Positions 21,418-59,722 of a DNA stretch of 64,000 bases are shown piece after piece. The notes under the pieces were generated by a model, which was not told the origin of the DNA, ran no database searches, and was given only the letters and a program-made list of their open reading frames with translations. Location of the stretch: contig JAGOQI010000001.1 in the NCBI GenBank assembly GCA_017991515.1, positions 41,641 through 105,640 on the forward strand, in the 5' to 3' direction. Position numbers and translations under genes: made by a program. Position 1 is the stretch's first letter, and each line of letters opens with the position of its first letter. This DNA comes from Minisyncoccota bacterium (GTDB lineage: Bacteria; Patescibacteriota; Minisyncoccia; Phycocordibacterales; UBA9973).

Positions 21418-23037
21418 ATGACAACACAACTACAACAAAGAACTGTCAAGGAAGTTGTACAACAGTATTCTAGTCTATATGGACTACAAGAGTCGAAAGC
21501 TTTTTTATTTTTAGTTATTGAAAAGTATTTTTCAGATAATGATTTAAATAGTATAGATATTGAAGAGGCAATTGTTGATGGTAGTGATGATTGTGGTATT
21601 GATGCAATTGTTATTGATGATTATGGAGACCAACGACCTAATGTATACTTTTTTCAATCTAAATTTTATCAATCCGAAGATGCTTTTGAAAAAAATTTTG
21701 AAGGAGAAGCATTAGACAAAATAAAAAGCTCTATAAACGATTTTGTTTTACAAGGAAAGATAAACAAAAAATATCAAAATACTAGGTTAGTAGACAAACT
21801 TCAATCAGTTAAAAACTTAGGATCTAGAAATCCTCTATACACAATTGTGCTTTGTTCTAATTCAAAAGAACCAACAGATATTGCAAAATCAAGACTTGAA
21901 GAATTTATTACCGAAACAAACAACAGTGCAGCCGGTGAGTATATTTCTATTGAATATCTTCACCTAGACCGAATAACTAAAGAGTTAATCGCACCTCAAC
22001 AACAAAGATTGATTGATATAAACCTACAAACTTCTGGAAAGTTCCTAACTGAAGATACTGGAAATGTTCGATTATTTGTTGGGGCTGTAGAAGCACAGAT
22101 TCTAGCAAGTCTTGTAGAGCAATATGGTAATGATTTGTTTGAGAAAAATGTTAGAGGATTTTTGGGGTCAAATAGTTTAAATAAAAATATTATTCGTACA
22201 GCAACAACAGAACAAAGCCCTTACTTTGTATACATGAATAATGGTATAACTTTAACATGTGAAAGATTTACACATTCTCCAACATCTAACTCTCCATTAC
22301 TAGAAATAAAAAACGCTCAAATTGTTAACGGTCAACAAACAGTTAGATCTTTACACCAAGCAAGTAAATCAGATGAATTAAAACCCGATGTGAAAGTTTT
22401 AATAAGAATAGTAGAGACTACCAACGCCGACTTGTTAAATCAGATAATTGAAGCAACAAATAGTCAAACAAAAGTTACTTCTAGAGATTTACATTCAAAC
22501 GATGAAGTACAAAGACTTATAGAGGAGCATCTAAAAACAAAAGGTTTTTTCTATGAGGCTAGGAAAAATAAATATAAAGGTAAGGATGTATCAAAAAGGG
22601 TTGATGCTGAGATCGCAGCACAGTCTTATTATTCAATTTTTTTTGAACAACCAGCTATAGCTAAGGATAAGAAAAAACTATTATTTGGTGATAAGTACGA
22701 TGAATTGTTTAATCAATACACAAAATCTGAAGATATACTTTACAGTTTTAAACTACTAAGAACTGTTCAAAAATTAAATAATCAAGATAAATATACTAAA
22801 TTTACATTTCTAAACGATGCGACTTTACATATTATTACTTTAATGCAAAAAATATCTGGCAAATTTGATTTTGATAATGACGAAGACATAACGACTAGTT
22901 ATGAAAGGGTCTTAAAAGCATTAAAAATAGTTGTTGATGAAAGAGCAAAAGAAGAGGGTGATAAGTACGAACATAGGAGAACATTTAAAGACCCAGAAAC
23001 ATACGGTAGGGTTGTAGAGGTTTTATTAAAAAAATAA
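21418..23037 (+). CDS. AIPR-family (abortive-infection phage-resistance) protein-like
   Basis: N-terminal region …EAIVDGSDDCGIDAIVIDD…VYFFQSKFY… matches, from memory, the AIPR pattern (D-G-x-D-D-x-G-I-D-A … Q-S-K-Y); 539 aa; inserted between grpE and dnaK. Confidence 0.5.
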   Translation: MTTQLQQRTVKEVVQQYSSLYGLQESKAFLFLVIEKYFSDNDLNSIDIEEAIVDGSDDCGIDAIVIDDYGDQRPNVYFFQSKFYQSEDAFEKNFEGEALDKIKSSINDFVLQGKINKKYQNTRLVDKLQSVKNLGSRNPLYTIVLCSNSKEPTDIAKSRLEEFITETNNSAAGEYISIEYLHLDRITKELIAPQQQRLIDINLQTSGKFLTEDTGNVRLFVGAVEAQILASLVEQYGNDLFEKNVRGFLGSNSLNKNIIRTATTEQSPYFVYMNNGITLTCERFTHSPTSNSPLLEIKNAQIVNGQQTVRSLHQASKSDELKPDVKVLIRIVETTNADLLNQIIEATNSQTKVTSRDLHSNDEVQRLIEEHLKTKGFFYEARKNKYKGKDVSKRVDAEIAAQSYYSIFFEQPAIAKDKKKLLFGDKYDELFNQYTKSEDILYSFKLLRTVQKLNNQDKYTKFTFLNDATLHIITLMQKISGKFDFDNDEDITTSYERVLKALKIVVDERAKEEGDKYEHRRTFKDPETYGRVVEVLLKK

Positions 23038-23047
23038 AATTAATAAA

Positions 23048-23066
23048 CTAGCAAGAACGGCCCTAG
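23048..23066. repeat. Copy 1 (degenerate) of palindromic element CTAGCAAGAACGG…CTAG
   Basis: CTAGCAAGAACGGCCCTAG; shares the 13-nt left arm with copies at 33869 and 34681; overlaps stop codon of 23063..23599. Confidence 0.45.
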
Positions 23067-23599
23067 TTAATCTTTGCTAAATGAAAAAATGCTTGTTCGG
23101 TTTCTTTGTCGAGGGTATTTGTTACAAAAACCATTATTTCGGTAGTGAGTCCGAAATCTTTTTTGATATTTGTGAAGAGATGTTCATAAGGGAAAGGGGA
23201 AACCCAGACACTATTTTTCAAACACATAAAACCAGCCTTCTTTAGAAGGTAACGAAGTGACTCTCTTTCATCTTTTCGAGTCTCTGGAAGATCAAGTATT
23301 ATGATGCGCCATTTACCATCCCATGATGGACTAACTAAGCCATTATCATTATCAAGTTTCAGACTATTTAGCTTCTTTTTACCTTCTTTTGTCAGTCTAG
23401 CGTATTCATTTTGTCCAGAAAAACTTTGTTCTACTAACCCAGTCTCTAGAAGCCCCTTTAAAGAGCGAGAAATGGCCATTTTAGAGCTTTTTTTGTCCTT
23501 TTGAGTACTTACTCGTTCCACTATCTCAGGCACTGAAATAGCCGGCTTTTCAGCTAATAGTTTCAATATTTTCTTCGAGAATGAAGGTTTTATTGACAT
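23063..23599 (-). CDS. PaaX-like winged-helix transcriptional regulator
   Basis: N-terminal wHTH-like (AISRSLKGLLETGLVEQ) and C-terminal WDGKWRIIILDLPETRKDERESLRYLLKKAGFMCLKNSVWVSP motif typical of the PaaX family; divergent from dnaK. Confidence 0.45.
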   Translation of the reverse strand: MSIKPSFSKKILKLLAEKPAISVPEIVERVSTQKDKKSSKMAISRSLKGLLETGLVEQSFSGQNEYARLTKEGKKKLNSLKLDNDNGLVSPSWDGKWRIIILDLPETRKDERESLRYLLKKAGFMCLKNSVWVSPFPYEHLFTNIKKDFGLTTEIMVFVTNTLDKETEQAFFHLAKIN

Positions 23600-23714: not shown

Positions 23715-25598
23715 ATGGGAAAAATAATTGGAATTGACTTAGGAACTACAAACAGTGCTGTCTCTATCATCGAAGGAGGACAGCCAAAAATTATTGAAAA
23801 TATTGAAGGTTCACGAACTACTCCTTCTATTGTTGCTATTGGAAAAAATGGTGACAGACTTGTTGGCTTGCTTGCCAAAAGACAATCAGTAACAAATCCA
23901 CAAAATACTATCTACGGTATCAAGCGTTTTATGGGTCACAAATATGACGACCATGGTATGGAAAAAGTTATAAAGACTTCACCTTTTAAGGTTTCAAAAG
24001 ATGCCAACGGTGGCGCACTTATAAAACTTGCTGACAAAGACTATAGACCAGAAGAAATCTCTGCTATGATTTTGCAAAAGATCAAAGCAGATGTTGAAGC
24101 AAAGACAGGTGAGAAAATAACAGAAGCTATCATCACTGTTCCTGCATATTTCAACGATGCACAAAGAAAAGCTACGAAGGATGCTGGTGCTATTGCAGGT
24201 CTTGATGTGAAGCGCATCATCAATGAACCAACAGCAGCAGCACTTGCTTACGGATTTAACACTAAAAAAAATGAAAAAATAGTTGTTTATGACTTTGGAG
24301 GTGGAACATTTGATGTTTCAGTTCTTGAAGTAACAGAAGATGTTATTGAAGTTAAATCTACAGATGGAGACTCACTCATGGGTGGACGAGATATTGATTT
24401 GGATATTATCAACTGGATTGCTGAAGAATTTAAAAAGTCATCAGGTATTGATGTTTCCAAAGATCCTCTTGCTTTACAGAGACTAGATGAAGCAGCAGAG
24501 AAAGCCAAGATTGAGCTCTCTACAACTACAGAAACAGAAATAAATATTCCGTTTATTACTTCAACTGATGCTGGACCTCAACACTTACTGTTGAAAATGA
24601 CTCGTGCAAAGCTTGAAGAATTAGCTGATGAGTTTATTGCTCGTTCTATTGAGATAACAAAACGAGCTATGGATGCTTCTCCGTTTAAAGTAGGAGATAT
24701 TAATGAAATCATTATGGTTGGAGGTCAAACTCGAATGCCAAAGATTGTTGAAGAAGTTAAGAAGCTCTTTGGTAAAGAACCAAATCGTTCTATCAATCCA
24801 GATGAAGTTGTAGCTCTCGGTGCTGCAGTTCAAGGTGGAGTTCTTCAAGGAGATGTTCGTGATGTTTTACTTCTTGATGTTATCCCTCTATCTCTAGGTA
24901 TTGAAACTATGGGAGGCGTAGCAACAAAACTTGTTGAAAGAAATACGACTATTCCTTCATCAAAGTCTCAAGTCTTCTCAACTGCTGCTGACAATCAAAC
25001 TTCTGTAGAAATTCATATCGTTCAAGGTGAGCGACCAATGGCGGGAGATAATAAATCTATTGGGCGATTTGTCCTAGAAGGTATTGCTCCAGCACCAAGA
25101 GGTATTCCTCAAGTGGAAGTTTCTTTTGATGTGGATGCCAATGGTATTTTGGCTGTAAAGGCAAAAGATAAAGCAACCGGCAAAGAGCAGTCTATCCGCA
25201 TCGAAGCTTCTTCTGGGCTTTCTGCAGATGATATTGAAAAAATGAAAAAAGATGCAGAGCTTCATGCAGATGAAGATGCTAAGAAAAAAGAATTGGTAGA
25301 TACAAAAAATACTGCTGATCTAACTATCTTCACAGCAGAAAAAGCTCTTACAGAACACAAAGAGCACATAACAGAAGACATCAAAACTGCTGTAGAAGAT
25401 AAAATCAAAACACTTAAAACCACAAAAGAAGGTGATGACAAAAGTGCTATCGAAACTGCAATTCACGAACTCTCTACAGAAATGCAAAAGATAGGTGAAG
25501 CAGTTTCAAAGGCTAAACCAGAAGAAGGTACTGAACCAAAAGAAGGGGGAGTAAAAGACGCAGAAGCCGAAGAGACGTCTGAGGAAAAATCAGAATAA
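23715..25598 (+). CDS. dnaK: Chaperone DnaK (Hsp70)
   Basis: [18 protein letters not shown] and remaining Hsp70 signatures; 627 aa. Confidence 0.95.
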
Positions 25599-25815: not shown

Positions 25816-26586
25816 ATGACTATACTAAACTCCGAAAAGTATAGCGTTGTCTCATTTGATCTCGACGGTACTATAACTGAAAGTCGACAACCCATAGAGC
25901 CCTACATGGTAAATCTTTTAAATAAGCTCACTGAAAAAGTGTTGGTTGTTATTATATCTGGAAGTTCATTTAAAAATCTTTTAAACCAATTAGATCTATT
26001 TCTAAATCAAGAAAATAAAGAAATATTTAAAAACATACTTCTAATGCCAGCTAATGGTAGCGAGACTTATATCTATAAAACTACAAATTGGGAGATTTCT
26101 GATTCTGAAACTATGGGGAATGAAACTAAGAGTAAAATTATTGAAGTTTTAGAAAAATTAATAGATTCAAAAAATTTTAATATTCCAGAGATGGAAGTAG
26201 GCACTAAAATTGAAGATAGAGGAACTCAAATATCTTTTGCAGCACTTGGTATAGATGCTTCGATAGAAGAGAAAAAACTTTGGGACCACGATCAAGAGAA
26301 AAGAAAAAAGATAGTAAACTTTATAAAGCCACTACTTCCTGAAACTGACATTTTTATTGCTGGAACTACAACAATAGATATTTTACCGAAAGGAATAACA
26401 AAAGGAGTAATGTTAAGAAAAATGTTATCAAAAAGAACTCTCCTTGATACTGACTTACTATTTATTGGGGATGCACTATTTGAAGGAGGGAATGACTACG
26501 AAGTAAAAAAGGAGGGATTTAATACCATTTCAACAACAGGACCAAAAGAGACAGCAAAGATTATAGAAAGTATCTTAGAGAAGTAA
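25816..26586 (+). CDS. HAD-superfamily (IIB/Cof-like) sugar-phosphatase
   Basis: Motif I FDLDGTIT at N-terminus; motif IV-like FIGDALFEGGNDYEV near C-terminus. Confidence 0.55.
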   Translation: MTILNSEKYSVVSFDLDGTITESRQPIEPYMVNLLNKLTEKVLVVIISGSSFKNLLNQLDLFLNQENKEIFKNILLMPANGSETYIYKTTNWEISDSETMGNETKSKIIEVLEKLIDSKNFNIPEMEVGTKIEDRGTQISFAALGIDASIEEKKLWDHDQEKRKKIVNFIKPLLPETDIFIAGTTTIDILPKGITKGVMLRKMLSKRTLLDTDLLFIGDALFEGGNDYEVKKEGFNTISTTGPKETAKIIESILEK

Positions 26587-26588
26587 GA

Positions 26589-28262
26589 CTACTTATACTT
26601 GTGGTCGTGTTTATTATTTAATATTGGTATATAGCATTTATCTGTATATTCTTTCATAACCCTATTGGTTGAAAAATGTTCCTCTATAAGAGACCTAGAA
26701 TTTTTCATACGAGATAGCCATTTAGAATTACCTTGATCAAGAATATGACTATAATACATAGGCAAGATTTCTTCTTCAGTTATATCAAGCATTTTTTTAG
26801 ATAAATTTTCTGATTCATTTAAGACCCAGCCACAATCATTAACATCAACTTCAGCAATCCATCCATCTTTTGTAGAAAATGGAAGAACTCCATTTAATGC
26901 GGCCTTCATTCCGCTTGTACCACACGCCTCTCTACCTATCTCGGGAGTATTAAGCCATACATCACAACCAGCGACCATCAAAGTAGCTATATCGATATTA
27001 TAATGTGGCAAGAAAACAGCAACACCAGAAAGCTTTTCACTTATAATATTTTTGAGCTGTGCTAATAACTCATTATGGTGAACATTATTTGTTGGTCCTG
27101 AAAAAACAATTCTAAAAGGTTTATCACTATTTTGAGCTAATGCTACAAATCTTTCGACATCTTGAATAAAAGCAAGAGGTTGTTTGTATGGAACCATACG
27201 ACGCCCCCAACCAAAAAGTAATGTGTTTTCATCCCAAAGTTCTCCAGTTTCTTCTTTTATATATTGTAATAATTTCTTTTTATTTTCTTGGTGCAATCCC
27301 CATATATTTATACTGTCACTAATTTTGTCCCATCTAGGAATATAAATACCGTTAGTAATATTATCCATTTTATATTCAGGCCAAACATTTTGAGCTTCTT
27401 TGCCATGAAGAATACTGACAGAATTAGCTATAGAAGAAAATCTAAAAGAAAACATAGTCATTGAAAATAGTTTCGGATCATCTGTTATACCCATAGATAT
27501 AATCTCGTCAGTCGTAACACATATCTCTTTTGCATAACCATCTAATGCTTTAGCAATACTATCAACAGCAAAAATCTCTTGCCCAGCAGCAACCAATGTG
27601 TGATTGGTAAACAAAATATGTTTACTCGCATAACTACAAGCTGTACTAAAATCAACACGCTGATGTATCATTTCATGATTGACTAGTTCTAATGCCAAAA
27701 AAGCACTATGTCCTTCATTGAGGTGATAGACACTAGGATGTAACCCTAACAAATGCCTGAGAAATCGAAATCCTCCAATACCTAAAAGTATTTCTTGTTT
27801 CAAACGCAACTCTCTATCTTCTACATATAATTGCTCAGTAATAAGTCTGTCTTCAGCGGTATTTTGTTCAACATCAGTATCAAGCAAGTAAACATTAGCT
27901 CCATTTTCATTCCAGTGCCATATCTGAAAATATATTTGCCTACCACTAATAGGTATAGAGATTACAACAGGAGACTCCTTTACTGAAATAATTTTAATCT
28001 CTTTATTGCTTTCCGAATTATTGGTAATAATGTCGTTTTGTCCTTTTTTATACAAAAGACCAATAAAAACTATTGGTAGATCTTGCTCTGCAGACTCTTT
28101 CACAATATCTCCAGCTAGTATTCCTAAGCCCCCAGCATATATTGGTAGGGTAGGAGATAGTGCATATTCGGCTGAAAAATAAGCAACTGGATTTTCTTTT
28201 AGTGTTTTATAATCTTCTGTTTCTTTAAATTTTGAAGCCCATGTATCTTTGTTTGTTTGCAT
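26589..28262 (-). CDS. Alpha-glucan phosphorylase (GT35 family, short archaeal-like form)
   Basis: GGLGILAGD near N-terminus and the PLP-lysine region EACGTSGMKAALNG. Confidence 0.6.
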   Translation of the reverse strand: MQTNKDTWASKFKETEDYKTLKENPVAYFSAEYALSPTLPIYAGGLGILAGDIVKESAEQDLPIVFIGLLYKKGQNDIITNNSESNKEIKIISVKESPVVISIPISGRQIYFQIWHWNENGANVYLLDTDVEQNTAEDRLITEQLYVEDRELRLKQEILLGIGGFRFLRHLLGLHPSVYHLNEGHSAFLALELVNHEMIHQRVDFSTACSYASKHILFTNHTLVAAGQEIFAVDSIAKALDGYAKEICVTTDEIISMGITDDPKLFSMTMFSFRFSSIANSVSILHGKEAQNVWPEYKMDNITNGIYIPRWDKISDSINIWGLHQENKKKLLQYIKEETGELWDENTLLFGWGRRMVPYKQPLAFIQDVERFVALAQNSDKPFRIVFSGPTNNVHHNELLAQLKNIISEKLSGVAVFLPHYNIDIATLMVAGCDVWLNTPEIGREACGTSGMKAALNGVLPFSTKDGWIAEVDVNDCGWVLNESENLSKKMLDITEEEILPMYYSHILDQGNSKWLSRMKNSRSLIEEHFSTNRVMKEYTDKCYIPILNNKHDHKYK

Positions 28263-28269
28263 AATTAAT

Positions 28270-29760
28270 TTATCCTCGTTGTTCTGGCTGTCCGCCTCTT
28301 ATATGTTTATATTTTTCGGTGTAACGATCAAGTGTCTCTTCGACTTCAAAATTAGGAATCTCTAAACGCAATAACTCTATAGCATGTACTGCATCATAAA
28401 TATCATTTTTTGTTTCAATTTTGTAAATTGCATCACGCCACAAAATAGCTTTTTCATATTCACTGTTAGAAGAAGCTTTTTTCTCTAATGATTTTAACAT
28501 ATCCATAAATGCTTCATATATCCCTTGTTCAACACCACCTTTTTCAAATGTCCTTTCTTTGAAAGGTATTTTTACATTGTTTTGTTGCCCTGCCATCATT
28601 TTATAAATTTTGCCGCTTCTTTTCCATTGAAATGCTGTTGAGACAATTTTTTCATATAAATCCAAAGCTTTGTTTTTATCTTCTTGGCTAACCTTAACAA
28701 TAGACCTAACTATTGATAAATTAGCAAAAGCTCCTTGTTCTATTTCTTCTAAACTCCACCATGGTTTTGCAGATGCCCACCAAAAGTGATCTGACGCTAA
28801 AGCTTGGTCTAGCATACTTCTTATTTTTTTATATTCAGGATCTGCTTCAGACATTAGTTTTACAGATTCTTGCGCCAAATTAACCAAAGACCATTGCCAA
28901 GTGTGTATTTGATTTTCTGGATCAGACCATGATAAAAACTGAATGCCATTTTCAATATCAGACTGACTAGAAGCCCAGGTTGAAGCAATAGGGACAACCT
29001 CATCTGAAACAGGGAAGCTTTCTACTAATTCTGAAATCTTAACTAATTCAAAATCAGGGGAATCAAAAATTTCAAAAAGTAATTTTTCAAGACCTGGACG
29101 ATGGTGACCAAAAGTTTCTCCATCCATAGCTGTTAACAAATATGATTTATTATCCAACTCTTCTCCAAGTGCACTAACTAAAGATTGAGCCGAACGAACC
29201 ATAGAACTCATTATAAGATTACTCGGCCTTCTTTCTCTAAAGAAAACCTTAAGATCTGTACCTTTTAATCTATGGATACCCTCATATGAAAGTTGTTCAG
29301 TCTTACCATTAAAACTAATCTCATCTAATATTATCCATTCAAATCCTAGCTCAGCTATTATTTTCCCAACCTCTTCATCATAGGCCATCTCTGGTGGGAA
29401 AAAACCTTTAGGTTGGAAATCATTTCCTAAATATTTTTGAAGAGTTAGGGTATTAATTTTTATCTGACGGATAACTTCTTCTTTAGTTAAAAATGGTAAG
29501 AGTGCATGGTACTTTGCAGTTCCAGTAATCTCTAGTCTTCCTTCGTCAACTAATTTTTTAATAATATCAATAACATCTGAGTATCCATTTTCATCTAATA
29601 ACTCAAAAAGAGCACCAGTGATATTGATAGTCATCTTAACTTTTGGATTGTTAAGCATTTCGGAGAATATTGGTCTATAACTTTGGTGTACTACCGCTTC
29701 CAAAATATCAGGCTGTTGATTTGCAGGTTGATATATATGTAAAAAGTTGGCCCATTTCAT
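28270..29760 (-). CDS. Glycoside hydrolase family 57 alpha-glucan-active enzyme (branching enzyme or amylase-like)
   Basis: N-terminal …FLHIYQP… and overall GH57-like layout; sits between glgA and the phosphorylase. Confidence 0.5.
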   Translation of the reverse strand: MKWANFLHIYQPANQQPDILEAVVHQSYRPIFSEMLNNPKVKMTINITGALFELLDENGYSDVIDIIKKLVDEGRLEITGTAKYHALLPFLTKEEVIRQIKINTLTLQKYLGNDFQPKGFFPPEMAYDEEVGKIIAELGFEWIILDEISFNGKTEQLSYEGIHRLKGTDLKVFFRERRPSNLIMSSMVRSAQSLVSALGEELDNKSYLLTAMDGETFGHHRPGLEKLLFEIFDSPDFELVKISELVESFPVSDEVVPIASTWASSQSDIENGIQFLSWSDPENQIHTWQWSLVNLAQESVKLMSEADPEYKKIRSMLDQALASDHFWWASAKPWWSLEEIEQGAFANLSIVRSIVKVSQEDKNKALDLYEKIVSTAFQWKRSGKIYKMMAGQQNNVKIPFKERTFEKGGVEQGIYEAFMDMLKSLEKKASSNSEYEKAILWRDAIYKIETKNDIYDAVHAIELLRLEIPNFEVEETLDRYTEKYKHIRGGQPEQRG

Positions 29761-29766
29761 AATGTA

Positions 29767-31224
29767 CTATTTATTAAATTGATTAAGAGCCCTTTCAAAA
29801 AGTTTTATGTATTCTTTTGCTGACTTTTCCCAAGAAAAATTTGTTCCCATAGCTCTCTTTTGTATTTCTCTCCAAACTTTTGGATACCTATATGTCTCAT
29901 AAGCCCTAACAAAAGCCCCAAACAATGCATAGTGATCATAAGCTTCAAAAACAAAACCTGTTCCAAGATTATTTTTTAAGTCGACATCTTCAACGCTATC
30001 TACTAGTCCTCCAACATGACGAACAATAGGAACAACACCGTAACGCATTGCTTCCATTTGAGTAAGACCAGATGGTTCAAACCTAGATGGTATTAATATA
30101 GCATCAGCTCCCGAGTATATAACATGGGGAAGTATGTCGTCATAAGAGAGGTGAGTAGCAACATTTTTGTATTTTTTATCCAGTTCTTCAAAGAAGGATA
30201 AGTACTTAGAATCTCCAGAACCTAAAATAACAAATTGAAAATCAAAGTTATTCAAAAGTGGTTCTACTACCTCCATAACCAAATCAAAACCTTTCTGTTC
30301 CGCCAAGCGCCCTACCATAGCAACAACAAAAGTTTCTTTGTTCTCTGGTAAGTTAAATTTTTGTTGTAAGATTTTTTTATTTTTAAGTCTTTCGTTTAAA
30401 TCTTTAGAGTCGTATTTATATTCAACATAAGGATTAGTCTCTGGATTGTAAGCATCATAATTAATACCATTTAAGATACCAAAGAGTCTGGAGCGTCTCT
30501 CTTGCAACAAAGTATCCAAGGTCTCTCCGTATTCTGGACTAGTTATTTCTCGAGCATAGTTAGGGGAGACAGTATTGATAACATCAGCATAGCGAATACC
30601 TCGACGCATAAAATTTAATTTCAAGAGCCTGGGGTCTGAAATAGATGGGATTTCTGATTGACCATCATCATAATCAAGTTCGCTAATATGGTGATAGTCG
30701 TATGTTCCTTGAAAATGAATATTGTGAATTATAAAAATACTCGCAATAGTAGAGACAATAGGGTCGTCTTTATAATTACACTTCATATAGTTGGCGATTA
30801 ATCCTCCTTGCCAATCATTTCCGATGATAATATCAGGTTTCCATCCATCTTTACTTTTTGCAAATTCAATAGCTCCACGAGCAAGCAACGCCCACCGAGA
30901 CGCGTCATCATCATAACCATAAACACTACCTCTTTTTTCATAATACTCTTCGTTCTCAAGAAAATAAGTAATTAAACCTTCTGAAGACGAATACTCTTTA
31001 ACATTACAAATAATATCTTCGTGTTCTAAATCTGGAACATGCATTTGGTTGACCTTTGTTTTAAATTCAAATTTTTCCTGATCGATAATGCCGTATTTAG
31101 GAATAAGTGTTCGAGCATCATGACCTATTTCATTTAAGGCTTTTGGTAGGGCGTATAAAACTTCTCCTAAACCACCAACCTTAACAAAAGGAGCACATTC
31201 TGATCCCACAAAAAGTATTTTCAT
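29767..31224 (-). CDS. glgA: Glycogen/starch synthase (GT5)
   Basis: MKILFVGSECAPFVKVGGLGEV… ; ORF-track N-terminal extension to 31323 overlaps the upstream cupin gene, so the internal ATG at 31224 is used. Confidence 0.75.
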   Translation of the reverse strand: MKILFVGSECAPFVKVGGLGEVLYALPKALNEIGHDARTLIPKYGIIDQEKFEFKTKVNQMHVPDLEHEDIICNVKEYSSSEGLITYFLENEEYYEKRGSVYGYDDDASRWALLARGAIEFAKSKDGWKPDIIIGNDWQGGLIANYMKCNYKDDPIVSTIASIFIIHNIHFQGTYDYHHISELDYDDGQSEIPSISDPRLLKLNFMRRGIRYADVINTVSPNYAREITSPEYGETLDTLLQERRSRLFGILNGINYDAYNPETNPYVEYKYDSKDLNERLKNKKILQQKFNLPENKETFVVAMVGRLAEQKGFDLVMEVVEPLLNNFDFQFVILGSGDSKYLSFFEELDKKYKNVATHLSYDDILPHVIYSGADAILIPSRFEPSGLTQMEAMRYGVVPIVRHVGGLVDSVEDVDLKNNLGTGFVFEAYDHYALFGAFVRAYETYRYPKVWREIQKRAMGTNFSWEKSAKEYIKLFERALNQFNK

Positions 31225-31252
31225 TTTTTTGCCTTGCTTCATAAAATTCATA

Positions 31253-31843
31253 CTAATTTTTCTCAATAATAATGTTTGGTACATTTTTATAATTAGGATT
31301 TTTAATAAAATCAGGATTACCATCTTTACTTACTACATAATAAGCAAAACCTCTATTGTCTTTAACTGGCTTATAGTCAGCATGTATTGGCCACGAAGCT
31401 TTTTCGTTTTTAGACATTGCCACAGGGCTATCATCAGATGTTACTAACCAAGACTCTCCTATATTAATAATAAGATGTCCTGATTTTGGTGGAACAGTAA
31501 TAACACTTCCTGCGCTAAAATAAATAGCTTTTATACTCTCTACTTCGTTATCGATCAGTTCTCCACTTGAAAGCTTTTTTCTTTCTTGTAAAAGCATTAT
31601 TCCTTCACCGGACAAAACTGTATAAATTTCTGGCAATTCATCTACATGATAGTGACCATAAGCCTTTATATACTCACCACCAACATTTCCACTTTCCAGT
31701 ACTGTGATATTTTTTTTCTGACTTCCACCTCGAATCATATAATAGTGAACATTTGGTCCTGAGCTTTCAGGAGACATCAAAACATCTTTCATCTCTTCAT
31801 GAGTGCGTACAGCCATGATGTCTGTCTTATGCAAAGTATCCAT
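31253..31843 (-). CDS. Cupin-type glucose-6-phosphate isomerase (archaeal cPGI-like)
   Basis: Core GEYIKAYGHYHVDELPEIYTVLSGEG plus later PPKSGHLIIN matches the metal-binding cupin PGI signature (T-x-G-H-x-H … E-x-Y … H) as recalled from Pyrococcus/Thermococcus PGI. Confidence 0.5.
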   Translation of the reverse strand: MDTLHKTDIMAVRTHEEMKDVLMSPESSGPNVHYYMIRGGSQKKNITVLESGNVGGEYIKAYGHYHVDELPEIYTVLSGEGIMLLQERKKLSSGELIDNEVESIKAIYFSAGSVITVPPKSGHLIINIGESWLVTSDDSPVAMSKNEKASWPIHADYKPVKDNRGFAYYVVSKDGNPDFIKNPNYKNVPNIIIEKN

Positions 31844-31965
31844 AGTGAATAAATTGTAACACGGGAAGCCTATATAAATTATTTATTTGAGCGATACAAA
31901 ATAGAAAAAATGTGTTATAATATGCAAATAATAAAGGTTTTTGTAACAAATATACTTATCAAAAT

Positions 31966-33048
31966 ATGTCAAAAGATTATTACAATATATTAGGAGTCGA
32001 TAAGTCAGCTTCAAAAGATGAAATAAAAAAAGCTTTTCATAAAATGGCTCATAAATATCATCCTGATAAATCTGGTGGGGATGAAGCTAAATTTAAAGAA
32101 GTAAATGAAGCTTATCAAACTCTTCATGATGATCAGAAGCGTGCTGGCTATGATCAGTTCGGTAGCGATGGACCACAAATGGGTGGCTTCGGTGGACAAT
32201 CAAGCGGCTTTGGTGGCTTTGACTTTTCTGGATTTAATCAAAGTGGTGGTTCCGGTGAAGCTTTCGAATTCGACCTAGGAGATATGTTTGGAGGGATGTT
32301 CGGTGGCGGACGACAAGCGCGCAAACCTCGAGGAAACGACTTACAAACATCTATGACTATTGATTTCAAGGATTCTATTTTTGGAATTGAAAAAGAACTC
32401 AAAGTTACCAAGCCTTCTGTTTGTAATACATGTAAGGGAGACGGTGCAACGCCTGGAACAAAGCTTGAAACTTGTAGTACTTGTAATGGTAACGGAGTAG
32501 TTCGAAATATCCAACGAACAATCCTTGGTTCTATCGCTACAAATCAAACTTGTACCAAATGTGCCGGCTCAGGAAAAATACCAAAAGACCCATGTAAAAC
32601 TTGTCGTGGAACAGGAGTCGTAAACGACACTCGCACTATCAAACTCTCTGTTCCTGCAGGTATCCAAAATGGCGAGACGCTAAGACTCTCAAGTATGGGT
32701 GAAGCTGTCCAAGGCGGACCTTCTGGAGACTTATATGTACACATCACAGTCACGCCTCACAAAACTATTGCTCGAAAAGGTGCTGACCTCTATACAAACC
32801 TAGACATCAAACTCACTGATGCATTACTTGGCGCACAATACGCCGTTGAAACTCTTGATGGTTCTATGCCTATAGCTATACCTTCTGGAACAAAAATAGG
32901 AAGCACTGTTGTACTCAAAGACAAAGGTGTACCGATAAATAAAAACAAAAGAGGGAGTTTCGTAGTAAATCTAAATATCAAACTCCCAGAAAAACTTTCA
33001 AAAGAAGCTAAAGCTATTATTGAACAGTTGAAAAACGAAGGAATATAA
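31966..33048 (+). CDS. dnaJ: Chaperone DnaJ
   Basis: J-domain HPD motif (KYHPDK), G/F-rich linker, four CxxCxGxG zinc-finger repeats. Confidence 0.9.
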   Translation: MSKDYYNILGVDKSASKDEIKKAFHKMAHKYHPDKSGGDEAKFKEVNEAYQTLHDDQKRAGYDQFGSDGPQMGGFGGQSSGFGGFDFSGFNQSGGSGEAFEFDLGDMFGGMFGGGRQARKPRGNDLQTSMTIDFKDSIFGIEKELKVTKPSVCNTCKGDGATPGTKLETCSTCNGNGVVRNIQRTILGSIATNQTCTKCAGSGKIPKDPCKTCRGTGVVNDTRTIKLSVPAGIQNGETLRLSSMGEAVQGGPSGDLYVHITVTPHKTIARKGADLYTNLDIKLTDALLGAQYAVETLDGSMPIAIPSGTKIGSTVVLKDKGVPINKNKRGSFVVNLNIKLPEKLSKEAKAIIEQLKNEGI

Positions 33049-53665: not shown

Positions 53666-54541
53666 CTATATATTATTAAAAACTTTTAGTTTTTGTAAAA
53701 CTACTTGTTTGATAGCATCTTTAGCCATAGGTAAATATTTGTATGGTGCTATTTCGTCTTTGTTTTCAACTGTCATGCTTTCTATTAAAGCATCTTTATA
53801 GGCGACACGAATCTCTGTGTTGATATGAACTATGGCGACCCCTGCTTCTATGCACGCTCTCACATCTTCATCTGTATTTCCTGAAGCGCCATGGAGAACC
53901 ATGGAAACTTTTGTCTTTTCATATATCTGCGCCACTCTATCTGGGTGAAGTGCTGGTTCCCCACTTTTAACCATACCGTGAATGTTTCCTACTGACGGAG
54001 CAAGCAAATCAATACCAGTATTATCTATAAAATATTTTGCGTCTTCTGGTTTTGTCATAGTCTCTTCGCCTGCACCTTCTGGAACATCATCGAGCATTTT
54101 TGAGGAGCTACCGATAAAACCAAGTTCTGCTTCTATCAAAACATCTTTACCGAGCTCTTTAGAAATTTTGCGTGCATAGTCCACACACTGTTTTGTTATT
54201 TTTATATTTTCTTCAAGTGGAAGTTTTACCAAATCAATAATAGCCATATCAAAACCTGCATCTATTGATTTCTTTACTGATTCAAAAGAGTAGTGATGAT
54301 CAGCGTTTAAGAAAACTGGCACTTTAGCTGTTTGTTTTAGGACACTGACAATGCCTGCTAAAACTTCAGTGCCTATGTACCCCTCCTCTCCTTCTGTTGC
54401 TCCGAGTATAATAGGAACATTTAACTCCTCTGCAGCTTCGACTATGGCATGTATTGCATCTAGATTTGAAACATTGAAATGCCCAATAGCTCTTTTCTCT
54501 TTTCTAGCTTCTTCGATATAACTTCGCAGAGTTTTTTGCAT
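53666..54541 (-). CDS. fba: Class II fructose-1,6-bisphosphate aldolase
   Basis: …GHFNVSNLDAIHAIVEAAEELNVPIILG… and metal-binding His residues in class II order. Confidence 0.8.
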   Translation of the reverse strand: MQKTLRSYIEEARKEKRAIGHFNVSNLDAIHAIVEAAEELNVPIILGATEGEEGYIGTEVLAGIVSVLKQTAKVPVFLNADHHYSFESVKKSIDAGFDMAIIDLVKLPLEENIKITKQCVDYARKISKELGKDVLIEAELGFIGSSSKMLDDVPEGAGEETMTKPEDAKYFIDNTGIDLLAPSVGNIHGMVKSGEPALHPDRVAQIYEKTKVSMVLHGASGNTDEDVRACIEAGVAIVHINTEIRVAYKDALIESMTVENKDEIAPYKYLPMAKDAIKQVVLQKLKVFNNI

Positions 54542-54590
54542 ATAATAATTGTATCACAAAGTAAAAAACCTATTATGTTATAATTATCTT

Positions 54591-55586
54591 ATGCAAAATG
54601 AACAAATAGACTTTTTAGCTATCGGTGACATTGTGACCGATGCTTTTATAAAAATTAAAGACGCTAGAGTAAGTTGTGATGTAGACGACCACAATTGTAG
54701 AATATCTCTTAGTTTCGGCGACAAAGTTCCTTATGAATCAGTAGAAGAAGTACGAGCTGTTGGTAACAGTTCTAATGCGGCTATTTCTGCCGCTCGCTTA
54801 GGGGTAAAAACTGCTTTGATGGCCAATGTTGGTAAAGATATTCATGGGGACAACTGTTTATCTGAATTACAGAAAAATAATGTCAGTACACAATACATGG
54901 GTGTTCACGATGGTATCCCGACCAACTACCACTATGTGCTTTGGTATGATGTAGATCGAACTATTTTGGTAAAACATGCACACTTCCCTACTTCATTCCC
55001 AAAAGACATGACTCCTCCAAAAATGATTTATCTTTCTTCTTTGGGAGAAGGTACAGAAGAATATCATGCACAAATATCTGACTATGTTTCTAAAAATCCA
55101 GAAATAAAATTAGTTTTTCAACCTGGAACATTTCAAATGAAAATGGGTGTAGAAAAATTAAAGGATATTTATGCTAATACAGATATATTTTTCTGTAATG
55201 TTGAAGAAGCACAAAGAATTTTGGGTAATAAAGAAACTGATATCAAAGTACTAGTTTCTTCTTTGCATGCTTTAGGTCCGAAAACTGTTTTTATAACAGA
55301 CGGCATAAAAGGAGCTTATGCTTCAGACGGAAAAGAAGTTTGGTTCATGCCTATCTATCCTCAAACGCCATTTGAAAGAACTGGTGCAGGAGATGCATTT
55401 TCATCAACAGTTTCTGCGGCATTACTTATGGGTAAGACTTTGAGCGAAGCATTATCTTGGGGTCCTATAAACTCTATGTCAGTAGTTCAATATGTTGGAG
55501 CACAAAAAGGTTTACTTACAAAAGAAAAACTTGAAGAGTATCTAAAAAATGCTCCTTCACAATACGCTCCACAACTACTTTCTTAA
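54591..55586 (+). CDS. PfkB-family carbohydrate kinase
   Basis: N-terminal GG-like region and C-terminal TGAGDAFSST anion-hole motif; ORF-track start 54549 trimmed to the in-frame ATG at 54591. Confidence 0.6.
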   Translation: MQNEQIDFLAIGDIVTDAFIKIKDARVSCDVDDHNCRISLSFGDKVPYESVEEVRAVGNSSNAAISAARLGVKTALMANVGKDIHGDNCLSELQKNNVSTQYMGVHDGIPTNYHYVLWYDVDRTILVKHAHFPTSFPKDMTPPKMIYLSSLGEGTEEYHAQISDYVSKNPEIKLVFQPGTFQMKMGVEKLKDIYANTDIFFCNVEEAQRILGNKETDIKVLVSSLHALGPKTVFITDGIKGAYASDGKEVWFMPIYPQTPFERTGAGDAFSSTVSAALLMGKTLSEALSWGPINSMSVVQYVGAQKGLLTKEKLEEYLKNAPSQYAPQLLS

Positions 55587-55610
55587 AAGTTTTAGCTATA
55601 AAAATTAAAA

Positions 55611-55638
55611 ATCCTCACACTATCGTGAGGATTTTTCA
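55611..55638. terminator. Bidirectional terminator (AATCCTCAC…GTGAGGATT)
   Basis: 9-bp perfect stem with flanking A/T runs between convergent genes. Confidence 0.65.
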
Positions 55639-55639
55639 A

Positions 55640-55987
55640 CTAAAGATAATATAATAATCCTGCAGATTGTGGATTATCTTTAACATCAAGATTATGAAAA
55701 CCAACTTCCTCAGATAACCCAGGAGAAAAATAATCTATAGGTTTTTTATCATCATTTATTAAAAAGAAAAAACTATCAAGTTGAGTATTGAACTTAGTTT
55801 GAATTTTAAGATCATTTTTAATTCTAACCAAAGGAACTTCAACAAAGTTGTTTTTGATTATTAGTAGTTCTTCTTTTTCCAAACTTGATCCAAGATCTTG
55901 GTTTGTTTCAAAATCATTAAACAATTTCTTTATTATTTTATCTAATACTTCTCCTGGAAATACTGAATATTCAATTTTTAATTCCAT
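55640..55987 (-). CDS. Hypothetical protein (115 aa), last gene of tkt-containing minus-strand unit
   Basis: Intact ORF; no family recognised. Confidence 0.4.
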   Translation of the reverse strand: MELKIEYSVFPGEVLDKIIKKLFNDFETNQDLGSSLEKEELLIIKNNFVEVPLVRIKNDLKIQTKFNTQLDSFFFLINDDKKPIDYFSPGLSEEVGFHNLDVKDNPQSAGLLYYL

Positions 55988-56040
55988 AACGGTATATTTT
56001 TAATCAAAATACCACAGTATTACACAGAGAGCAATTATCT

Positions 56041-57033
56041 TTATTTCCTGTCCAATACTTTCAATACTGCACTCATGATAGCGTCTCGTCCCATGCCATA
56101 ATGCTCTATGAGTTGTAGTGGTGTGCCAGACTGACCAAATTCATCTTTTACTCCGATAAATTCTATAGGAGTAGGTGTAGACTTCGCCAAACATTCTGCC
56201 ACAGCAGATCCAAGACCTCCTGCTATTTGATGCTCTTCAACTGTCACAATAGCTTTTGTTTCTCTTGCAACTTTTATTATAAGCTCCTCGTCAAGAGGTT
56301 TGATAGTATGAATATTCACCACTATAGCTTTGATATTTTTCTTTTCTAAATCTTTCGCCACTCTCATAGCATTGGCCACAAGTCCTCCTGTAGCAATGAT
56401 GGCTACATGGGCAATACCTTCAGGTCTAAAAAATATTTGTCCCTTTCCAAGTTCAAAAGGCGTGTCTTCACTAGTGATGATAGGAGTCTTTTCTCGAGCA
56501 AGTCGCAGGTATGCAATCTTTGGATCTGCTCCTAGAGCAAGAGTTGCTTTCTTAGCCTGTATAGCATCACAAGGTGATATTACGGTCATACGAGGCAATA
56601 CCCGCATCAAGGCAATATCTTCTACAGCTTGGTGAGTTCCCCCGTCTGGTCCGACAGATATACCAGCGTGGGAACCTACAACTACAGCCGGTCTATCGTT
56701 ATAACAAATAGTAGTTCTTATCTGTTCCCAATTTCTCCCGGGAGAGAACATGGCATAAGAAGAAAAGAATGGATACTTGCCCATCGCACTCATACCAGAG
56801 GCAACAGTTGCTAAGTTTTGCTCTGCTACACCTATCTCTACAAACCTCTCTGGAAATTTATTTTTGAAAAAATGCATTTGTGTAGACTCTGTTAGGTCAG
56901 CAGACAAAGCCACAATGTTTTTGTTTGTTTCCCCTGCCTGCGCCAAGCCTTCACCAAAGCCTTTACGAATAGGTACTTGTTCTACATCGTCATTAAAAAC
57001 TTTATTATTTAATTTTAAATCAGGATTTAACAT
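56041..57033 (-). CDS. Transketolase, C-terminal subunit (pyrimidine-binding and C-terminal domains)
   Basis: Split-tkt organisation; …GEGLAQAGETNKNIVALSADLTESTQ… and C-terminal domain. Confidence 0.8.
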   Translation of the reverse strand: MLNPDLKLNNKVFNDDVEQVPIRKGFGEGLAQAGETNKNIVALSADLTESTQMHFFKNKFPERFVEIGVAEQNLATVASGMSAMGKYPFFSSYAMFSPGRNWEQIRTTICYNDRPAVVVGSHAGISVGPDGGTHQAVEDIALMRVLPRMTVISPCDAIQAKKATLALGADPKIAYLRLAREKTPIITSEDTPFELGKGQIFFRPEGIAHVAIIATGGLVANAMRVAKDLEKKNIKAIVVNIHTIKPLDEELIIKVARETKAIVTVEEHQIAGGLGSAVAECLAKSTPTPIEFIGVKDEFGQSGTPLQLIEHYGMGRDAIMSAVLKVLDRK

Positions 57034-57036
57034 ATT

Positions 57037-57918: not shown

Positions 57919-57923
57919 TTAAA

Positions 57924-58622: not shown

Positions 58623-58623
58623 C

Positions 58624-59058: not shown

Positions 59059-59063
59059 ATTAA

Positions 59064-59705: not shown

Positions 59706-59722
59706 AATATTCTTACTCTAGA

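Follow-up and report, generated by a model that had tools for sequence, protein, structure and literature searches.

Two chaperone genes, dnaK and dnaJ, are 6,367 bp apart in the stretch of 64,000 nucleotides from a Minisyncoccota bacterium that was analyzed here (contig JAGOQI010000001.1; hereafter, the window), and this arrangement raises the questions of what the intervening genes encode and how they came to lie there. An earlier reading made from the letters alone (hereafter, the sequence-only reading) had proposed that an alpha-glucan (glycogen-type) module of five open reading frames splits dnaK from dnaJ. This much was borne out: all five reading frames lie where they had been placed (Table 1), and the GH57, GT35, GT5 GlgA, cupin PGI, and HAD-IIB assignments each scored above their own HMM cut-offs.

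Organization of the locus

Four of the genes, encoding a cupin-type phosphoglucose isomerase (cPGI), GlgA, a GH57 enzyme, and a GT35 phosphorylase, are separated by gaps of only 1, 6, and 7 bp and presumably form an operon, cPGI-glgA-GH57-GT35; the adjacent HAD gene is convergent with the GT35 gene. Both the sequence and the gene calls place the glgA start at 31251, with 1 bp between it and the PGI stop codon, and the HMM alignment of GlgA begins at an internal methionine at 31224. A 518-aa glgA reading frame overlapping the PGI gene was rejected as a longest-ORF artefact, the gene callers giving 494 aa from 31251. Judged from the translations, obvious signal peptides are absent from all five proteins. 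As a point for reannotation, the GH57 gene is labelled “polysaccharide deacetylase” or “hypothetical,” and the HAD gene is labelled a hydrolase.

Table 1. Features of the dnaK-dnaJ region of the window and the basis of each assignment
Feature	Position	Strand	Basis or context
dnaK	23715-25598	+	Flanking context; ORF, PF00012 HSP70
HAD-IIB protein, PMM/PgmH family, proposed alpha-phosphoglucomutase	25816-26586	+	PF03332, TIGR01484, best PDB match 4BND
Short core-only GT35 alpha-glucan phosphorylase, 557 aa, last gene of the putative operon	26589-28262	-	TIGR02094, PF00343, PDB 9L6I
GH57 enzyme, orphan patescibacterial subfamily, predicted cytoplasmic	28270-29760	-	PF03065, AF2 model, catalytic residues
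glgA, bacterial-type GT5 glycogen/starch synthase, 494 aa	29767-31251	-	TIGR02095, PF08323, E. coli GlgA alignment
Cupin-type phosphoglucose isomerase (F6P<->G6P), first gene of the putative operon	31253-31843	-	PF06560, P. furiosus cPGI alignment
Conserved -10-like box GTTACAAT	31853-31860	-	Upstream of cPGI operon; GTTAYAAT in four syntenic genomes
Conserved extended -10-like box GTGTTATAAT	31912-31921	+	Faces dnaJ; 10-mer invariant in window, L005, L006, L042
dnaJ	31966-33048	+	Flanking context; ORF, PF00226/PF01556/PF00684

Generic scans returned 29 promoter sites (36 expected from shuffled sequence) and five terminator sites (4.9 expected); because these were no better than shuffled sequence, Table 1 is restricted to boxes that four genomes have in common. 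The GTTACAAT box is a putative promoter element of the cPGI operon, and the position of the GTGTTATAAT box suggests that dnaJ has a promoter of its own. Heat-shock co-regulation of the module was considered and rejected, since no CIRCE/HrcA operator was found in the whole window, even when three mismatches were allowed.

Identity of the encoded enzymes

The GT35 protein scored 450 bits against TIGR02094 (cut-off, 192 bits), also matched PF00343, and aligned with an alpha-glucan family phosphorylase of known structure (PDB 9L6I; 263 bits) at both the GGLG motif (AGGLGILAGD) and the PLP-lysine motif EACGTSGMK. By this score and these motifs it belongs to the TIGR02094 branch of GT35 alpha-glucan phosphorylases, as the sequence-only reading had recognized from the PLP site. 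Among the nearest 45 or so clusters at 50% identity, most contain proteins of 525–590 aa, and the short form is a clade of its own. A cluster look-up showed its relatives to be almost exclusively metagenome proteins, and the affinity of the GT35 protein may be archaeal or bacterial. Its description as Thermococcales-like did not hold: the equivalog model of the Thermococcales maltodextrin phosphorylase MalP (NF041129) is 816 positions long and was matched at 340 bits against a cut-off of 1500 bits.

The GT5 assignment of GlgA was upheld by TIGR02095, the model of the bacterial GT5 enzymes (513 bits; cut-off, 328 bits), and by PF08323 (229 bits), and the N-terminal K-x-G-G-L motif is present as KVGGLGEV. 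GlgA of E. coli aligned over the full length (residues 1–478; 274 bits), and that of Pyrococcus over the C-terminal half only (106 bits); as judged from these alignments, the protein is clearly of the bacterial type.

For the isomerase, the proposed cupin-type assignment is confirmed by PF06560 (80 bits; cut-off, 21 bits). All 26 patescibacterial homologues compared have H64, H66, E72, and H123, and in the alignment these residues fall on the metal-ligand positions GHFH...E...H of the Pyrococcus furiosus enzyme. The PF06560 domain and the His-His-Glu-His positions are common to the euryarchaeal cupin PGIs (P. furiosus, 1QXJ), the CPR cPGI clade, and the window protein, but the similarity of the latter to the archaeal enzymes is just 32 bits (E = 8e-7 for P. 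furiosus). The CPR clade, sister to the archaeal cPGIs, has already been reported (Jaffe et al., 2020), and the window cPGI is a member of it; that report makes no mention of the linkage seen here, in which the cPGI gene heads a putative glycogen operon. Because about a dozen species carry a cPGI without a linked module, the enzyme is not dedicated to the module.

The HAD protein had been read as a HAD-IIB sugar phosphatase, of which the HAD-IIB part stood (TIGR01484, 73.8 bits; cut-off, 42 bits) and the phosphatase part was not supported. All 17 of its PDB matches are phosphomutases, the best being the alpha-phosphoglucomutase PgmH of Lactococcus lactis (4BND; E = 2.4e-32, full length, 30% identity), and PF03332 (phosphomannomutase) was matched at 63.7 bits (cut-off, 22.4 bits), above the score of the generic Hydrolase_3 model. 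The HAD catalytic motifs (D15/D17/T19, K196, D219, and G224-D227) are invariant, and the cap residues E133-D134-R135 correspond to an E-D/N-R motif shared with the Lactococcus enzyme; these core motifs and the full-length similarity to characterized mutases place the protein in the family of HAD-type alpha-phosphoglucomutases and eukaryotic-type PMMs (PF03332). A sugar-phosphate phosphatase, which would free glucose or another sugar without interconverting glucose-1-phosphate (G1P) and glucose-6-phosphate (G6P), would agree with above-cut-off scores on the generic HAD-IIB and Hydrolase_3 models, with the NCBI label “HAD-IIB family hydrolase,” and with the DxD core common to HAD mutases and phosphatases. 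This alternative is nevertheless quite improbable in view of the exclusively phosphomutase matches, the higher PF03332 score, and the cap residues; the protein also fell far below the cut-off of every phosphatase equivalog model, and without it the module would have no G1P<->G6P step, yet about 19 species have a PMM-like HAD gene beside the module, and in eight of them it is co-directional and co-operonic. Since the bacterial Lactococcus enzyme is the nearest one of known function, the protein is probably an alpha-phosphoglucomutase, although at 30% identity phosphomannomutase activity is also possible. The mutase reading rests on this similarity to one characterized enzyme and on gene context.

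The fifth protein (496 aa) matched PF03065 at 122 bits (cut-off, 21 bits), in agreement with the GH57 assignment of the sequence-only reading. The top structural matches of its AF2 model (pLDDT, 84.6) are GH57 proteins only, and the nucleophile E124 and acid/base D213, invariant in 41 sequences, align with E123 and D214 of the T. litoralis 4-alpha-glucanotransferase (1K1W); profile, fold model, and catalytic Glu/Asp thus place it in CAZy family GH57. It has more than 3,245 homologues, the top 120 of which are 57–100% identical and 495–518 aa long. The T. litoralis enzyme is its best solved relative in sequence (56 bits, about 20% identity) and in the fold of the catalytic domain, has a nearly equal spacing between nucleophile and acid/base (91 residues, against 89 in the window protein), and likewise has a GT35 phosphorylase as partner. 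The two differ in the C-terminal half, which is all-helical in the model and a beta-sandwich in 1K1W, and at position 23 (Thr versus Lys); the T. litoralis maltodextrin pathway, unlike the window module, is without GlgA.

Read residue by residue, the CSR fingerprints of the GH57 protein are a mosaic that matches no defined specificity group. CSR-I is H8-I-Y-Q11-P12, with Q11 invariant in the subfamily; this region is HxHLP in glycogen-branching enzymes (GBEs) and has Q at position 4 in all other GH57 enzymes (PMC9291813). CSR-IV is E215-T-F-G-H-H, with Thr at position 23, where GBEs have E-L-F/Y-G-H-W with Leu23. No match to DUF1957, the C-terminal Pfam domain of GBEs, was found in the protein, and its E124-D213 spacing of 89 residues, compared with about 170 in TK1436 and AmyC, is too short to hold, in the form known from GBEs, the flexible CSR-III/CSR-IV loop and the beta5-beta6 strands on which branching depends; the Thermococcales branching enzyme equivalog (NF041133) was matched at 33 bits against a cut-off of 1000 bits. 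The 4-alpha-glucanotransferase subfamily has Lys23, a CSR-5 ending in W-H, a C-terminal beta-sandwich, and about 650 aa, and the window protein has Thr23, CSR-5 ALASDHFWW, a helical C-terminal half, and 496 aa. Of the marks of alpha-amylases (YY at positions 35–36, a non-aromatic position 12, and T23), only T23 is present, and the F at position 12 and the H at position 1 are at odds with this group; WW at positions 35–36 fits amylopullulanases.

These features suggest that the GH57 protein is of the transglycosylase/amylase type and not a canonical branching enzyme. Among its candidate roles, chain transfer of the 4-alpha-glucanotransferase/amylase type in partnership with the phosphorylase ranks first, with a likelihood a little short of even. 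Branching ranks second: the protein would be a new type of branching enzyme outside the GBEs, and the cluster would make true branched glycogen. The protein is indeed the sole glucan-acting glycoside hydrolase of the module, is encoded directly after glgA, and keeps E-x-F-G-H in CSR-IV. The GH57 GBEs (T. kodakarensis TK1436, T. thermophilus TTHA1902, and T. maritima AmyC) have the GH57 fold, a helical C-domain, and a similar length in common with it and are likewise often associated with glycogen genes. A similar gene arrangement occurs in Sulfolobus acidocaldarius, in which amyA, encoding a non-GBE GH57 “amylase,” adjoins glgA and is co-transcribed with it, and no recognizable branching enzyme exists (PMC8158581); this amylase is needed for glycogen accumulation, and a 2024 review raises the question of whether GH57 amylases of the Sulfolobus type are the missing branching enzyme. 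That system is archaeal and has GlgC, GH15, and GH133 genes nearby. Against a branching role, HIYQP replaces HxHLP in the window protein, Thr replaces Leu23, ELFGHW and DUF1957 are missing, about 80 residues fewer separate the nucleophile from the acid/base, and the GH57 gene is absent from two modules (L011 and L013), which leaves branching a possible but unlikely role. Debranching or plain hydrolysis ranks third and is doubtful.

Distribution and origin of the module

The window is itself part of a patescibacterial metagenome contig, and it was compared with GTDB species representatives at 35 cPGI loci, 34 of which are patescibacterial or CPR-like. In about 20 of the 35 patescibacterial species these five genes lie together, in several arrangements, and their grouping is therefore not due to chance: glgA neighbours cPGI in 20 loci, the GH57 gene in 18–19, and the GT35 and PMM-like genes in about 19 each, and all five are co-directional in eight. 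Clustering of ORF families across the 35 loci revealed no sixth recurrent gene. The arrangements are deeply diverged (GT35, 34–71% identity; glgA, kept in all of the ~20 linked modules, 49–87% in the 19 modules of typical form and 37% in L034, a divergent one), which points to a long history within the lineage.

A position of the module between dnaK and dnaJ is confined to four close relatives. The order grpE, PaaX-like gene, dnaK, module, dnaJ is also found in L006 and L042 and its dnaJ side in L005, and the module proteins of these three genomes are 55–87% identical to those of the window. The site is therefore clade-specific and old, and the placement represents an old rearrangement of one small clade rather than a recent insertion of foreign DNA. 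The comparison of composition with the flanks that the sequence-only reading had proposed found the module genes indistinguishable from host genes (GC3, 0.21–0.25 against a background of 0.245 ± 0.044; RSCU distance, 0.64–1.03 against 0.90 ± 0.21). Recent horizontal transfer was rejected, since the GC, GC3, and RSCU values of the module genes all fall in the range shown by 28 host genes.

The sequence-only reading had further proposed that a Thermococcales-type archaeal glycogen module may have been acquired horizontally and dropped into the chaperone operon. In keeping with this, the GH57 and cupin PGI families are rich in archaeal members, each of these two proteins has an archaeal enzyme as its best solved relative (the T. 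litoralis 4-alpha-glucanotransferase and the P. furiosus PGI, respectively), archaeal references form the sister group of the CPR cupin PGIs (Jaffe et al., 2020), and the module does lie between the chaperone genes. Such an acquisition is nonetheless extremely unlikely: the similarity to these archaeal enzymes is distant (56 and 32 bits, <30% identity), homologues number in the thousands at 55–85% identity, and the top homologues with named sources are all patescibacterial; synteny is kept in about 20 species, GlgA and the HAD mutase are bacterial-type, composition is host-like, and the Thermococcales equivalogs were missed widely (340 versus 1500 bits for MalP; 33 versus 1000 bits for the branching enzyme). 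The archaeal flavour thus persists in the families of two proteins and not in close similarity, and the cPGI and GH57 genes may still go back to archaeal ancestors at great depth. Same-lineage homologues with conserved synteny, which the sequence-only reading had itself named as evidence to the contrary, are what was found.

A proposed pathway and its significance

It is likely that the module is lineage-typical and vertically maintained and serves the metabolism of a glycogen-like alpha-glucan, the pathway outlined here and the old dnaK-dnaJ placement included. In mobilization, GT35 would free G1P from an intracellular glucan without ATP, the HAD mutase would convert G1P to G6P, and cPGI would convert G6P to F6P, which would enter the reactions of the aldolase, transketolase, and pentose-phosphate genes elsewhere in the window (FBA, PfkB kinase, a split transketolase, Rpe, RpiB, and GAPDH); the net result would be an entry into glycolysis independent of hexokinase. 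Most CPR are without hexokinase and PFK and use a shunt via the pentose-phosphate pathway (Jaffe et al., 2020). In storage, the HAD mutase and cPGI would run in reverse to G1P, an unlinked nucleotidyltransferase would make ADP- or UDP-glucose, and GlgA would lengthen alpha-1,4 chains. The GH57 enzyme would remodel the glucan. The directions and substrates of all of these enzymes are predicted ones.

The complete G6P-to-glycogen loop envisaged by the sequence-only reading was not borne out. No NDP-glucose pyrophosphorylase, the glucose-1-phosphate adenylyl- or uridylyl-transferase of the classical pathway, is encoded anywhere in the window (64 kb) or in the 10 kb around each of the roughly 21 modules, a nucleotidyltransferase motif scan identified only a ManC-like gene at a locus without a module, and no recognizable branching or debranching enzyme is linked to the module. 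Given the lack of a pyrophosphorylase in the window or near the modules, the synthetic arm is incomplete on present evidence. To our knowledge, glycogen has never been demonstrated in these organisms.

A purely catabolic module would make no storage polymer: imported maltodextrins or fragments of host glycogen would be disproportionated by the GH57 enzyme acting as a 4-alpha-glucanotransferase, GT35 would phosphorolyze the products, and the mutase and PGI would lead on to F6P. T. litoralis uses a 4-alpha-glucanotransferase, MalP, and PGM for maltose, and its 4-alpha-glucanotransferase is nearest to the GH57 protein in both sequence and nucleophile-acid/base spacing (91 and 89 residues, respectively). 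The lack of linked GlgC and branching enzyme (in the window and within 10 kb of the modules) also accords with salvage, as does the ATP-free entry point that phosphorolysis would offer to CPR without hexokinase. Salvage alone is improbable, however, since a full-length GlgA (513 bits) is retained in all of the ~20 linked modules, no transporter recurs in the cluster, and none of the five proteins has an obvious signal peptide.

The glycogen-like module preferred here resembles the operons of E. coli (glgBXCAP) and Lactobacillus acidophilus (glgBCDAP-amy-pgm; PMC4282360) in combining a bacterial-type GT5 GlgA with GT35 in one cluster and, in the case of L. acidophilus, in including a phosphoglucomutase gene. 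Unlike these classical GlgC-GlgA operons, it is without GlgC, GH13 GlgB, and GlgX, its mutase is HAD-type and not an alpha-D-phosphohexomutase, its phosphorylase is the 557-aa core form, and cPGI and the orphan GH57 are added. No published description of the five-gene module was found in the literature searched, which only touches briefly on starch/glycogen genes in CPR, reports the CPR cupin PGI, and describes another set of genes in Saccharimonadia.

Patescibacteria/CPR are regarded as metabolically minimal symbionts. It is conceivable, if doubtful, that many of them run a minimal glycogen cycle independent of GlgC and GlgB, in which the orphan GH57, as a new kind of enzyme for branching or chain transfer, would put the polymer into a usable form. 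If true, these ultra-small episymbionts would possess a private reserve of carbon and energy that is mobilized without hexokinase: a conserved operon leading from synthase and phosphorylase to F6P via non-canonical isozymes would let many Patescibacteria bank and withdraw their own carbon, and a phosphorolytic, ATP-free feed into the pentose-phosphate shunt would follow. Surveys usually count GH57 as an “amylose-degrading” CAZyme; here, the enzyme appears to be cytoplasmic and co-operonic with glgA, and its orphan subfamily of more than 3,000 sequences offers a well-defined target for biochemistry that touches the question of the glycogen-branching enzyme in organisms without known branching enzymes.

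Gene content of the dnaK–dnaJ interval

The sequence-only reading had described the genes between dnaK and dnaJ as an archaeal-flavoured, Thermococcales-type alpha-glucan module, possibly acquired horizontally. Its gene order and positions agreed exactly with the ORF map (see table), and curated HMM thresholds were exceeded for every family that it assigned: GH57 (PF03065, 122 bits), GT35 (TIGR02094, 450 bits), GlgA (TIGR02095, 513 bits), cupin-type PGI (cPGI; PF06560, 80 bits) and HAD (TIGR01484, 74 bits). Spacers of 1, 6 and 7 bp separate cPGI, glgA, GH57 and GT35, all on the minus strand, which therefore look like a single operon. The same locus was also assembled from three other samples. 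A 518-aa glgA ORF overlapping the PGI gene was rejected as a longest-ORF artefact, the gene callers giving 494 aa in four independent assemblies. Alignment of cPGI homologues begins only at residue 10–11 of the 196-aa ORF, and a conserved −10-like box stops 10 bp 5′ of the ATG as annotated. Translation may in fact begin at Met10; alternatively, the transcript may lack a leader.

Positions of the module, its surroundings and related loci
Feature	Sequence	Position	Strand	Details
AIPR-family gene	window	21418-23037	+	
PaaX-like gene	window	23063-23599	-	
PaaX-like gene	L006	18513-19040		
PaaX-like gene	L042	10000-10530		
dnaK	window	23715-25598	+	627 aa
HAD-IIB protein	window	25816-26586	+	256 aa
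GT35	window	26589-28262	-	557 aa
GH57	window	28270-29760	-	496 aa
GH57	L042	3667-5157		syntenic slot
GH57	L005	8958-10445		syntenic slot
GH57	L006	12079-13566		syntenic slot
glgA	window	29767-31251	-	494 aa
cPGI	window	31253-31843	-	196 aa
Possible Met10 start of cPGI	window	31816-31843		ATG at 31816
GTTAYAAT box toward cPGI	window	31853-31860	-	putative promoter
Extended -10 box toward dnaJ	window	31912-31921		putative promoter
dnaJ	window	31966-33048	+	360 aa
Central-carbon block	window	53666-60745	mostly -	
Module without GH57	L011	10001-14512		
Module without GH57	L013	10001-14523		
ManC-like gene	L036	10624-12006	+	461 aa

Distribution, genomic site and origin

A search with the cPGI as query, using one genome per GTDB species, identified 35 loci, 34 of which belong to Patescibacteria or CPR-like MAGs (Paceibacterota/Parcubacteria, Taylor-, Kaiser-, Nomura- and Roizmanbacteria), the exception being a Clostridia MAG (32% identity). 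When the window proteins were compared with these loci by tblastn, cPGI was found to be adjoined by glgA at 20, by GH57 at 18–19, by GT35 at ~19 and by a PMM-like HAD gene at ~19. All five genes are co-directional at eight loci (PMM-like > cPGI > glgA > GH57 > GT35); at others the HAD gene is convergent, as in the window, or divergent, and a second architecture is cPGI > < GH57 < glgA < GT35 < PMM-like. GH57 is absent from the module at L011 and L013, where cPGI is divergent from glgA-GT35-PMM-like, and therefore is either dispensable in these species or encoded elsewhere in their genomes. Clustering of all ORFs from the 35 loci revealed no sixth recurrent partner gene.

A contig titled “uncultured Gammaproteobacteria bacterium” (L033; CAZVQS010000001.1, 649 kb) carries a patescibacterial-type cPGI (52% identity), and its taxonomic label may be wrong. 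At L036, which has a cPGI and no glycogen genes, the next gene encodes a ManC-like sugar-1-phosphate nucleotidyltransferase (GGSGTRL motif), which hints that cupin PGI is also used for nucleotide-sugar synthesis in some lineages.

The order grpE, PaaX-like gene, dnaK, module, dnaJ is common to L006 and L042, and the dnaJ side is visible in L005; relative to the window, housekeeping proteins of these three genomes are 79–95% identical and module proteins 55–87%. The placement, shared by the closest relatives only, is therefore inherited inside a genus- or family-level clade. Neither dnaK nor dnaJ was found within 10 kb of the module in any other species of the scan. The 122-bp cPGI–dnaJ spacer contains two boxes conserved in all four syntenic genomes, an extended −10 box (GTGTTATAAT) and an oppositely facing GTTAYAAT box, suggesting separate divergent promoters for dnaJ and the cPGI operon. 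Neither a CIRCE operator nor an hrcA gene was detected in the window. Between grpE and dnaK, in the opposite orientation, lies a conserved gene for a small PaaX-like protein (wHTH and PaaX_M Cas2-like domains) that may be the local regulator of the chaperone genes.

The proposed archaeal transfer is not supported by these data: the best homologues lie in the same bacterial lineage with synteny kept, an outcome that the sequence-only reading had itself named as refuting it. Nor is the composition of the module foreign: its GC, GC3 (0.21–0.25 versus 0.245 ± 0.044) and codon-usage distance (0.64–1.03 versus 0.90 ± 0.21) are indistinguishable from those of 28 host genes. A lone gene of the AIPR family (PF10592, 147 bits), of abortive-infection/anti-phage type and weakly similar to MzaE, occupies precisely the interval from grpE to the PaaX-like gene. 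L006 and L042 have no such gene at this position, and its GC3 (0.17) is lower than that of any other gene examined. It was probably inserted recently as a defence gene and is, therefore, a better candidate than the glycogen module for a gene “dropped into” the chaperone operon.

Considered gene by gene, GlgA is bacterial, matching E. coli GlgA over its full length (274 bits) and Pyrococcus abyssi GlgA over the C-terminal half (106 bits). Among solved structures, the HAD protein is closest to the Lactococcus lactis alpha-phosphoglucomutase; it has further relatives in CPR and Bacteroidota. The GT35 protein belongs to the TIGR02094 branch and scores 340 bits against the Thermococcales MalP equivalog (816 positions; cut-off 1500); because most of its nearest ~45 50%-identity clusters are 525–590 aa, the short, core-only form constitutes its own clade and not the Thermococcales trait for which it had been taken. 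The cPGI matches the P. furiosus enzyme with only 32 bits; it has >2,000 homologues, the top 120 at least 56% identical, and the named sources are patescibacterial. PF06560 PGIs are scattered over CPR as a sister clade to the archaeal ones (Jaffe et al., 2020). The GH57 protein scores 56 bits against Thermococcus litoralis 4-alpha-glucanotransferase, and those of its >3,245 homologues with named sources are patescibacterial. The “archaeal flavour” is thus confined to the family history, already published, of two of the five genes, cPGI and GH57.

The probable HAD-type mutase and the GH57 enzyme

The HAD protein, initially read as a sugar-phosphatase, is instead probably of the mutase type: PF03332 (PMM) outscores Hydrolase_3, all 17 PDB matches are phosphomutases, and every phosphatase equivalog cut-off is missed by a wide margin. 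The best match, L. lactis alpha-phosphoglucomutase (4BND), covers the full length (E 2.4e-32, 30% identity) and shares the cap motif E133-D134-R135; the catalytic residues D15, D17, T19, K196, D219 and G224-D227 are invariant. Together with the co-operonic position in eight species, this evidence makes G1P–G6P interconversion the best reading, and the protein is probably the mutase for the missing step of the module, exactly that required between phosphorylase/synthase and PGI. Public names conceal the pathway: at NCBI the identical GH57 protein carries the name “polysaccharide deacetylase family protein”, which apparently stems from a weak PF01522 match (30 versus 122 bits for GH57), and the identical HAD protein, deposited in an N-terminally shortened 226-aa form, “HAD-IIB family hydrolase”.

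An AlphaFold model of the GH57 protein (41-sequence alignment, pLDDT 84.6) has the GH57 fold and is roughly equidistant from all characterized classes (TM 0.5–0.58, 13–20% identity); a profile search ranked the solved relatives in the order T. litoralis 4-alpha-glucanotransferase (51 bits), AmyC (48 bits), the TK1436 branching enzyme (36 bits) and S. marinus amylopullulanase (31 bits). The nucleophile E124 and acid/base D213 are invariant, align with known catalytic residues and lie 89 residues apart, as in 4-alpha-glucanotransferase (91) and unlike branching enzymes (~170). Compared with published fingerprints, the conserved sequence regions (CSRs) form a mosaic: Q4 of CSR-1 (HIYQP) rules out the GH57 glycogen branching enzymes (GBEs; HxHLP), position 12 in CSR-3 (FPPEMA) is aromatic, unlike alpha-amylases, position 23 in CSR-4 (AMDGETFGHH) is the alpha-amylase-type T (L in GBEs, K in transferases), and the WW of CSR-5 (ALASDHFWW) is amylopullulanase-type. 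A Pfam search detected no DUF1957. Collectively, these features predict an enzyme that is catalytically competent yet outside every defined specificity group. Because it lacks a signal peptide, it would act intracellularly.

A chain-transfer or amylase-type role is tentatively ranked first, branching, rather unlikely, second, and debranching or hydrolysis third. Precedents point in both directions. The nearest relative, T. litoralis 4-alpha-glucanotransferase, works with phosphorylase in maltodextrin catabolism. In Sulfolobus, however, glycogen accumulation needs a non-GBE GH57 whose gene is transcribed together with glgA (PMC8158581), and a 2024 review raised enzymes of this kind as candidate missing branching enzymes.

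The GH57 proteins at the syntenic slot fall into two classes, {window, L042} and {L005, L006}, only 55–57% identical, in genomes that are near-equidistant in glgA (83–87%), dnaJ (79–85%) and dnaK (91–95%). The former class is closest to the distant L017 (70–72%) and the latter to L007 (70–71%), a pattern that points to in-place allele replacement, in which a different patescibacterial GH57 took over the slot within the operon.

Predicted pathway

The complete G6P-to-glycogen loop suggested earlier was not found locally: a glucose-1-phosphate nucleotidyltransferase was detected neither across the 64 kb of the window nor within 10 kb of a module in other genomes, and the synthetic arm therefore would rely on an unlinked gene. 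GalU is reported from some Saccharimonadia (2026 preprint). GH13 enzymes for branching or debranching are likewise not linked to the module. In mobilisation, GT35 would produce G1P, the HAD mutase would convert it to G6P and cPGI would convert G6P to F6P, which would pass to FBA, split transketolase, Rpe, RpiB and GAPDH. These enzymes are encoded by a central-carbon block in the window (class II FBP aldolase, Rpe, RpiB, a YceI-like protein, GAPDH and others), which also includes a plus-strand PfkB-family sugar kinase and a transketolase divided between an N-terminal and a C-terminal gene. Storage would follow the reverse route to G1P, and then an unlinked NDP-glucose pyrophosphorylase and GlgA, with GH57 remodelling the glucan chains.

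Starch/glycogen genes of CPR have been mentioned in passing and their cupin PGI has been described (Jaffe et al., 2020); CPR go unmentioned in a major review of alpha-glucan metabolism in prokaryotes (2024), and the literature searches found no account of the conserved five-gene module, its HAD-type mutase or the orphan GH57 subfamily. The phosphorolytic route would provide a glycolytic entry independent of hexokinase, in agreement with the report that hexokinase and PFK are scarce among CPR (Jaffe et al., 2020).
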